A stretch of DNA of 64,000 nt from the NCBI GenBank assembly GCA_965250285.1, contig OZ252299.1:4704001-4768000 (forward strand). Reading direction: 5' to 3'. This DNA is from Myxococcota bacterium. Lineage in GTDB: Bacteria; Myxococcota_A; UBA9160; UBA4427. Every line of letters starts with the position of its first letter. Positions within the stretch are counted from its first letter, which is position 1. A model generated the notes under the pieces. The model had not been told where the DNA came from. It searched no databases and was given only the letters and a program-made list of their open reading frames with translations. Shown one piece after another: positions 13,055 to 15,174 of this stretch. Both the position numbers and the translations under genes were made by a program.

Positions 13055-13160
13055 CTACTGCTTGCGAATGCCGAGCGCGAACTCGGGCGCGGTTCGAAAC
13101 GTCGCTCGAGGCACCGCGGTCTCGGTCCTCACTGCTTGCGTATGCCGAGCGCGAACTCGG
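13055..13160. repeat. Direct duplication of the last ~10 codons of the acyl-CoA dehydrogenase gene
   Basis: 13058-13086 and 13132-13160 match at 28/29 nt; each copy ends in a stop (TAG, TGA). Confidence 0.9.
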
Positions 13161-14307
13161 CGATCATCTTCTGGTGGAGCTCGCTCGTCCCTTCACCGAA
13201 CTCCATCGCCTTGGCCTCCATGAGCAGCCGGCCGATCTCGTACTCCTCGGTGCACGAGTAGCCCCCGAAGACCTGCATGCCGTCGAGCGCGTTCTGCACC
13301 GCCGCTTGACTCGCGCAGAGCTTCGCGAGGCTCGCTTCGAGGCTGGCACGCGGCACGCCGGCGTCCTTCATGCGGCCCAGGCGATAGACGAGCAGCCGCG
13401 CCTGCTCGGTGCGCATCACCATCGCCGCGATCTTCTGCTGGATCATCTGGAACTCGCCGATCTTCTGACCGAAGGCCGTGCGGTCCATCGCGTACGGCAC
13501 CGCGAGGTCGACACAGCGCTGTGCCTGGCCCACCTGCCGTGCCGCGACCGAGAAGCGGCCGGTGTCGAGCGCCGAGCCGAGCACGGGGAACCCCTTGCCG
13601 GCCTCGCCGAGCACCGCCTCTTCGGGCACGAAGGCATCTTCGAAGTAGACCTCGGCGAGATTGTCGCGCTTGAGCGTGCGCATCGGGAAGTCGCCCAGGC
13701 GGATCCCCTCGGTCGCCTTCGGGTCGATCAGGAACGCGGTCACGCCCTTGTGCTTCTTTGCGCGATCGGTGGTCGCCACGGTGAAGAAGAGCCCCGCGTG
13801 CTCGGCATGCGAGATGAAGACCTTGGTGCCGTTGAGCCTGTAGCCCCCGTCGACGGGCGTGGCCGTCGTCTGCATGTTCGCCAGGTCGGTGCCGCCGCCC
13901 GGCTCGGTCAGGCAGGCGCTGCAGATCACGTCGCCGCCTGCGATGCCCGGCAGCCAACGCTGCTTCTGCTCTTCGGTACCGAACTTCAGGATCGAACCGG
14001 CGCAGAGGCTGTTCGCCACCGAGATCACCGAAGCCACCACCCAGTCGACGCGCGCGATCTCCTCACAGATCACGCCGTACGTCAGGACGTCGGTGAACGA
14101 ACCGCCGTACTCTTCGGGGATCATCGGACCGAGCAGCCCCATCGCGGGCAGCTTCGCGATCAGCTCGAGGGGGTAGCGCTCTTCGCGCTCGTACATCTCG
14201 ACGTGGGGGAGGATCTCCTTCTCGGCAAACTCCCGCACTGTGGCGCGCACCAGGCGCTGGTCGTCGGTGAGGTCGAAGTCGGCCATCCGGTCGAGCAGTT
14301 CGGACAT
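13129..14307 (-). CDS. Acyl-CoA dehydrogenase
   Basis: CLTEPGGGTD, LNGTKVFIS, RTAFGQKIGEFQMIQ, QVFGGYS, FGEGTSE. Confidence 0.95.
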   Translation of the reverse strand: MSELLDRMADFDLTDDQRLVRATVREFAEKEILPHVEMYEREERYPLELIAKLPAMGLLGPMIPEEYGGSFTDVLTYGVICEEIARVDWVVASVISVANSLCAGSILKFGTEEQKQRWLPGIAGGDVICSACLTEPGGGTDLANMQTTATPVDGGYRLNGTKVFISHAEHAGLFFTVATTDRAKKHKGVTAFLIDPKATEGIRLGDFPMRTLKRDNLAEVYFEDAFVPEEAVLGEAGKGFPVLGSALDTGRFSVAARQVGQAQRCVDLAVPYAMDRTAFGQKIGEFQMIQQKIAAMVMRTEQARLLVYRLGRMKDAGVPRASLEASLAKLCASQAAVQNALDGMQVFGGYSCTEEYEIGRLLMEAKAMEFGEGTSELHQKMIAEFALGIRKQ

Positions 14308-14606
14308 CGCGGGTGTTGCTCCTTCGTGAGTCGCCCGGCCCCAGGCCTAGTTGCCGCATCGCGGATCGAGGTGGGTCGGGGTGGATCGATTGGCGCGGCG
14401 GGGCCAGACCGGGGCGCGGTTCGGGCGGCCGACTCGGCTGCAGGTCGCCCCCGGCACCGGAGTCGCATCGGGCGGGCGGCGGCAGCATGCGGCCAACAAT
14501 CTGAGTAGCCCAGCGACCCTCCTGAGGCGAATCTGGACGCCGTGACGGCCTCCTCAGGTTCAAAATGCGCCCCCAGGGGCACGCGTCGAGGCCTTCTCGC
14601 CGCCCT

Positions 14607-14643
14607 TGGACATCCCCCGGCGCTTCCTCTACTTTCCGCCGCC
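14607..14643 (+). promoter_or_regulatory. Sigma-70 promoter with GC-rich discriminator
   Basis: TGGACA-17 nt-TACTTT followed by CCGCCGCC. Confidence 0.6.
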
Positions 14644-14811
14644 CTCGGCGTTCTCGATGAAGCCGGCCGAGCCCCCGACCGATCTTCTGCGCGAGCGCAC
14701 TTCGGCCTCCGGGCCGGGTCGAACGCGACTGGCGGGCCCCGCCCCGCCGACCCGAACCGATCAGCCGAACCCGGCGCGCCCGGGCGAACTAGATGAGAAA
14801 GGCGGCCCCCG

Positions 14812-14934
14812 ATGAAGAAGGGCACGAACAATCGCAACCGCACCAAGTCGAGCCGCTACCGCGCGAAGCTCAAGCAGAAGCATCGCCGCGCGCGCAAGCG
14901 CGTGACGCGGGGCGACCGCAAGTTCCACCGCTAG
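14812..14934 (+). CDS. 40-aa highly basic microprotein (ribosomal-protein-like composition)
   Basis: MKKGTNNRNRTKSSRYRAKLKQKHRRARKRVTRGDRKFHR*; GAAAGG RBS; GC3-rich codons; below the ORF-track cutoff. Confidence 0.75.
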   Translation: MKKGTNNRNRTKSSRYRAKLKQKHRRARKRVTRGDRKFHR

Positions 14935-14950: not shown

Positions 14951-15068
14951 ACCGTGAGCGATTGAAGCACGGCGATCTCGAATTCCACCGCGAGCGATTG
15001 AGGCGCGGCGATCTCGAGCTCCACCGCGAGCGATTGAGGCGCGGCGATCTCGAACTCCACCGCGAGCG
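14951..15068. repeat. 36-bp tandem repeat, about 3.3 copies
   Basis: Unit ACCGCGAGCGATTGAGGCGCGGCGATCTCGAACTCC starts at 14951, 14987, 15023 and (partial) 15059. Confidence 0.95.
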
Positions 15069-15174
15069 CGGGCGATCCGGCGCTCGCGCGAGCGCGCAGC
15101 AGCAGCCGATTCGATGCGGGGCCCTTCGAACGAGGGGCCCCGTTCTCTTTCTGGGGATCGAGTGTCGTGGGGAT

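Follow-up and report, generated by a model that had tools for sequence, protein, structure and literature searches.

A conserved 40-residue basic protein with a ribosomal-type promoter in Myxococcota: a candidate lineage-specific ribosomal protein

The window, the whole 64,000-nt stretch of DNA analyzed here, derives from a Myxococcota genome of 6.25 Mb and 68.6% GC (G000) whose class we take to be ‘UBA9160’. It contains a gene for a Lys/Arg-rich protein of 40 residues which, judged by comparison with related genomes, is real, strongly conserved and under purifying selection. We consider it probable, albeit far from assured, that the product is an extra, lineage-specific ribosomal protein, built as one basic helix and lodged in an rRNA pocket. 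The fuller proposal is that of an undescribed, stoichiometric ribosomal protein common to the UBA9160-like class, the Polyangiaceae and several other myxobacterial families, which would be unrelated in sequence to every known ribosomal protein and fill a site on the rRNA left vacant in model bacteria; its chance of being right appears to be slightly better than even. If it is right, the class has this protein in addition to bS22. Even if not ribosomal, the gene is a near-universal gene of its class for which no family model exists, and is usable as a marker.

The open reading frame, the ribosome binding site and the promoter were found as described in the initial annotation. Basic residues account for 19 of the 40 positions counted in the translation (8 Lys, 11 Arg), the Shine-Dalgarno-like motif ends 6 nt 5' of the ATG, and the two promoter hexamers are set 17 nt apart and followed by a GC-rich discriminator. 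The locus (window coordinates) comprises:

13129..14307, minus strand: divergent acyl-CoA dehydrogenase gene, the conserved upstream neighbor within the order
14607..14612, plus strand: −35 hexamer TGGACA, sigma-70-type, recurring in loci of the class and part of a conserved island in comparison with the same-genus relative
14630..14635, plus strand: −10 hexamer TACTTT behind a 17-nt spacer, read from the sequence and recurring in loci of the class
14636..14642, plus strand: all-G/C discriminator CCGCCGC, of the same class as in ribosomal protein, rRNA and tRNA promoters of G000
14643..14799, plus strand: 5' leader, counted from a putative start site; no Rfam match; folding z = −0.11 for 14642-14814
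14800..14805, plus strand: Shine-Dalgarno-like AGGCGG, with similarly spaced purine-rich sites in most relatives
14812..14934, plus strand: gene of the 40-residue basic protein, an unnamed family, with a predicted helix at residues 14-32; based on open reading frame, homologues, dN/dS and structural model
14951..15060, no strand assigned: three tandem 36-nt repeats between stop codon and terminator region, not seen in the same-genus relative
15116..15153, plus strand: intrinsic-terminator-like hairpin with T-rich tail; two overlapping sites found versus 0.7 expected

The hairpin likely marks the end of a one-gene transcript; in the comparison with the same-genus genome, no terminator-like hairpin was seen there. 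The tandem repeats are placed outside the conserved unit. Upstream of the acyl-CoA dehydrogenase gene, two short blocks (14510-14535) are conserved in the same-genus relative. They probably represent the promoter of that gene; relatives repeatedly show a TAGCCT-type box at this place.

Searched with the single sequence, 34 of 41 related genomes yielded a homologue, and a profile search recovered four of five re-tested misses. Among the 130 genomes that make up the class at a completeness of at least 90%, the profile matched 124, of which 121 had one match only. The gene is retained in a 1.8-Mb genome assembled as a single contig (G124) and in several genomes of 2–3 Mb. No paralogue was detected in G000, nor any meaningful match in phage, plasmid or viral collections. 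Each of the first 35 members has a start codon and a stop codon in the same place, a purine-rich upstream site is present in nearly all of them, and length changes among members are in-frame only. When 114 unique sequences were sorted into 47 disjoint pairs of nearest neighbors, a core of 27 codons gave a dN/dS of 0.18 (pS 0.28, pN 0.06), with 90, 74 and 287 differences at the first, second and third codon position, respectively. The same-genus genome differs by eight silent and three replacement changes. Two of the checks proposed with the initial annotation, for homologues and for purifying selection, had a positive outcome. A non-coding explanation, either a conserved RNA or a chance reading frame, has a practically negligible probability, being opposed by the dN/dS ratio, the third-position bias, the conservation of start, stop and ribosome binding site, and the in-frame length changes. 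The core is position-specific, with K23 in 46/46, A18 in 44/46 and R15 in 43/46 sequences, and K21 also belonging to it; it reads R-x-x-A-K-L-K-A-K. Profile scores were at least 51 bits for 102 real members versus at most 9 bits for 510 shuffled sequences; it is position, not composition, that is conserved. In codon adaptation the gene reaches the 98.7th percentile of G000, but a null model that keeps the protein unchanged gives p 0.11.

Elsewhere in the phylum, diverged members of 36–54 residues with the shared core occur in several families. Polyangiaceae is one of them, and three database members bear that label. When stretches with weak matches were read, 18/20 and 20/20 were members, as were four, plus one weaker, among six distant ones. 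Two candidates (L150, L180) were dropped as spurious. A broad profile (A3) matched 128 of 251 genomes of the phylum at E 0.05, a few of them marginally. By family, it matched 18/18 genomes of f15, 17/17 of f26 and 10/15 of f33, 1/23 of f19, 1/22 of f21 and 0/13 of f28. Re-searching 40 A3-negative genomes left 36 blank and yielded four marginal matches; two of these were inspected, and only one proved to be a true diverged member. Since one re-searched blank was a true diverged member, some blanks reflect divergence; loss or absence in whole families of the phylum is nevertheless likely from these searches. From one family to another, the sequence varies greatly in its N- and C-terminal thirds. 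In a protein collection, 1426 clusters were matched at E 0.01, and the 120 listed show no name other than ‘hypothetical protein’. No description of the family was found in the openly accessible literature searched.

AlphaFold2 predicted a helix for residues 14-32, with pLDDT about 90 over residues 11-30 and weakly ordered ends. Foldseek gave 0 matches for this model, a result that is uninformative for one helix. Lys and Arg amount to 48% of the protein, acidic residues are almost lacking, and hydrophobic residues are very few. Composition and the predicted basic helix together strongly suggest that the protein binds nucleic acid. This could be DNA if the product were a small nucleoid-associated protein, similar to protamines or histone tails and made with growth. 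The charge would suit such a role, and some nucleoid proteins are also driven by growth-type promoters. Besides, a filter of our own choice (small, Lys-rich, net-basic) selects 11 further gene calls of G000, two of which resemble histones or H1 on visual inspection and lack a Pfam match; the set comprises eight genes of ribosomal proteins by Pfam, including bS22, and three without a match. However, the sequence is not repetitive, and throughout the phylum particular positions keep their residues at a length of 36–54 residues, suggesting a shaped binding site, and the gene is linked to rpsD in one genus (g30, see below), so that a nucleoid protein is decidedly unlikely. Elsewhere in the genome, G000:C1:5118605-5118817 (L273) encodes a 70-residue basic protein, histone-like with a Lys-rich tail, which we take to be of the bacterial histone type, and G000:C1:1256558-1256839 (L265) encodes a 93-residue protein of Lys/Ala repeats, presumably H1-like; neither has a Pfam match.

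The best functional clue is the promoter, which belongs to the same sequence class as the ribosomal promoters of the genome. A generic sigma-70 scan with a threshold of nine consensus bases gave 0 sites here; the promoter matches 8/12. A −35 box with at least 4/6 matches combined with TAnnnT was present upstream of the gene in 85 of 114 loci of the class, 78 of them with a 17-nt spacer, as compared to 12/114 on the reverse strand and 3/111 downstream; the loci are related, and the counts are therefore not independent. In 77 of these 85 promoters, six or seven of the seven discriminator positions are G/C. A matrix derived from 92 relatives puts the site with this −10 hexamer in 9th place when the 3471 first-in-unit genes of G000 are scored. 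Discriminators with six or seven G/C were found in 6/6 ribosomal protein/rRNA and 10/12 tRNA/tmRNA promoters of this genome; translation-type promoters (16/18) thus differ from other promoters (79/207, 38%; Fisher p 3e-5) in a comparison which used a scorer without the family in its training, a background gene set from a simple gene caller, and the 6 of 19 ribosomal heads that yielded a promoter. The discriminator of the 40-residue gene has seven of seven. These counts bear out the earlier assignment to a translation-apparatus type of promoter. In E. coli, G/C discriminators accompany repression by ppGpp (PMC4408793), and by analogy this promoter may be repressed by ppGpp as well. The same analogy speaks against a role in stationary phase or hibernation.

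The leader of about 170 nt that had been noted holds for the window locus; its length, however, is not fixed, since the −10 box starts 15–195 nt before the start codon across the class. Leader length varies more than 10-fold among loci, eight of which are nearly leaderless (L096, L099, L162, L164, L165, L166, L168, L172; −10 box 14–17 nt before the start codon). In those eight loci a purM-like gene, identified by eye, directly follows. A conserved leader RNA was rejected because the leader has no Rfam match, is poorly conserved within the genus, and folds like shuffled sequences. The one Rfam match, BjrC68, is downstream of the gene and scored 20 bits versus a cut-off of 39; it was discarded.

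The gene is divergent from the acyl-CoA dehydrogenase gene and faces pyrF, with tgt, ychF and rnhA beyond. Within the order it keeps this position, with the acyl-CoA dehydrogenase gene on one side and pyrF/tgt on the other, and in other families its neighbors are unrelated. No functional link with the acyl-CoA dehydrogenase gene is supported. The order-wide conservation of the pyrE, pyrF, tgt and ychF neighborhood would fit docking of the basic helix to an acidic protein partner, such as RNA polymerase or an enzyme encoded nearby (pyrE, pyrF, tgt, purM). Considering that the neighbors change completely in other families and that few hydrophobic residues are available for an interface, such docking is highly improbable. 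In three other families (f26, f37, f45; L177, L197, L198, L202, L208, L209), the gene is located directly upstream, on the same strand, of a gene for a PF03618 kinase/pyrophosphorylase.

When 54 translation-gene queries were compared with 193 family loci (some genomes being counted twice), one adjacency emerged, that to the uS4 gene in G035; an rplC match in L099 was 2.9 kb away. All three genomes of the genus g30 carry the gene 5–10 nt behind rpsD on the same strand, and no other locus shows the link among the 30 examined in that family. The rpsD gene of G035 is the single PF00163 match of its genome and ends 5 nt before the ATG. The g30 rpsD genes (L030:926-1528 in G035; L233, L234) are divergent and about 40% identical to that of G000, which, together with the single match in G035, suggests replacement by a foreign copy. 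The rpsD link counts as one event, judged from these loci; it fits co-regulation, is no demonstration of binding, and gives a faint hint at the 30S subunit. Besides this event, none of the 193 family loci has ribosomal protein neighbors. The S10/spc cluster of G000, as read by eye, lacks uL3, uL24 and uS14, which are located elsewhere; uL24 adjoins bL33, and uS14 is grouped with bL31 and bL28 in a cluster of their own. The related regions, likewise read by eye, are:

G000:C1:1203980-1211688, 4836535-4837182, 6234099-6234425 and 5396403-5398225: S10/spc-related regions

A comparison of the 23S rRNAs of five carriers and five non-carriers revealed no insertion that separates the two groups; 17 single columns do, and lineage alone could explain them. 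That no rRNA insertion tracks the gene would also be expected for a ribosome-associated or RNA-binding factor that is bound transiently (an assembly helper, an initiation modulator or an RNA chaperone) instead of being a stoichiometric subunit. Promoter class, conservation and charge would be the same, and the gene forms its own transcription unit away from ribosomal protein operons. On the other hand, 40 residues and one helix leave little room for a second function, and in its fixed length and single copy the protein is like small ribosomal proteins of structural type; we regard a transient factor as unlikely. The 23S rRNA gene of G219 (L222, G219:C2:1391269-1395013) contains a 763-nt insertion near G000 23S position 1971 that is absent from nine other genomes. 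An intron that encodes a homing endonuclease is a possible explanation, offered as a guess.

Returning to the ribosomal protein proposed here, the family agrees with the lineage-specific small ribosomal proteins in being small, highly basic, conserved and single-copy, and, by sequence class, in its ribosomal/tRNA-type promoter. The reading is favored by the near-universal, mostly single-copy presence in the class, comparable to that of bS22 and bS21, by retention in small genomes, by the low dN/dS and the position-specific core, by the G/C discriminator, by the share of ribosomal proteins (8/11) among the other small basic genes of G000, by the rpsD link and by the blank phage, plasmid and viral collections. 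Against it speak the missing homology to any ribosomal protein compared, the scarcity of ribosomal protein neighbors, the patchy distribution in the phylum, the variable ends, the lack of a 23S insertion that sets carriers apart in the ten genomes compared, and the G/C discriminators at 38% of other promoters. Its own growth-type promoter would couple expression of the gene to ribosome synthesis. The predicted helix (residues 14-32) would occupy an rRNA pocket, while the flexible, variable basic tails would run along the backbone. Lys and Arg side chains may contact the rRNA backbone, with the small residues S13, S14, A18 and usually A22 packing against the RNA. The protein might thereby have a stabilizing role similar to the one played by bS22, bL37 or bS24. 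Such ribosomal proteins can shape antibiotic pockets, as exemplified by bS22 and kanamycin (PMC10081302). The proposal amounts to a prediction ahead of structure, namely that myxobacterial ribosomes contain a basic helix of 4–6 kDa.

In the tests run, the protein showed no homology to bS22, bL34, bL37 or the other ribosomal proteins compared. Pfam, NCBIfam, PADLOC and PHROGs gave nothing significant. The best PDB scores were weak and disagreeing (uS4, E 0.0097; bL34, E 1; bL35m, E 0.068), profile A2 giving none, and hhalign against eight ribosomal protein sets gave probabilities below 0.3%. A likeness to a segment of uS4 was dismissed, as profile searches did not support it. In the Atlas, unnamed clusters were matched at 0.95–0.97, and the named COX24_C, L41 and DUF6800 only at 0.76. 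No ribosomal protein is obviously missing from the G000 gene lists, which were read by eye with names assigned by recognition; the gene calls come from the simple caller, which missed bL34 and bL36. Compensation for a lost bS21 was discarded, bS21 being present in 250 of 251 genomes and, in one sample, in 48/48 genomes of the class.

Among known systems, bS22 (PF08213 COX24_C; analogues mS38 and eL41) is similar in being tiny, very basic, helical and encoded by a stand-alone gene, with an all-G/C discriminator in G000. In contrast to bS22, the protein is longer (40 versus 28 residues) and has another motif; hhalign gave 0.24%, and the Atlas value of 0.76 is a lead only. An orthologue of, or stand-in for, bS22 in this class was rejected, since G000 has a separate bS22 of the actinobacterial type (G000:C1:1255515-1255601, L266) and PF08213 matched 0/30 aligned members. 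PF08213 was detected in 47/48 genomes of the class and 12/13 of f28, and was not found in f15, f26, f19 and f21; within the class, this separate bS22 probably occupies its own pocket, which counts against the present protein sitting there. With bL34 (PF00468) the protein shares size and charge and a weak profile match (E 1). A divergent bL34, or a substitute for a missing rpmH, was rejected because bL34 is encoded elsewhere in G000 and in 37/41 relatives, with hhalign at 0.21%. The proteins bTHX, bL37 and bL38 gave no match to the protein in Pfam, NCBIfam or PDB, and PF17070 (Thx) was not found in G000. They are nevertheless comparable as small, lineage-restricted ribosomal proteins missed by annotation (PMC10081302, PMC10618245, PMC12123416); bL38, by contrast, is mostly beta (PMC12123416). 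The list of ribosomal proteins is still growing by lineage (bS22, bL37, bL38, bS24), so far through chance cryo-EM finds; tiny, basic, unannotated members are reported as found only by cryo-EM (PMC10618245, PMC12123416, 10.64898/2026.07.03.736309). The cyanobacterial bS24, a Synechocystis protein, is alike by description only: it is reported as a formerly hypothetical protein of one lineage, consisting of a single basic helix plus a tail that varies, and was located on the 30S subunit by cryo-EM and LC-MS/MS (10.64898/2026.07.03.736309).
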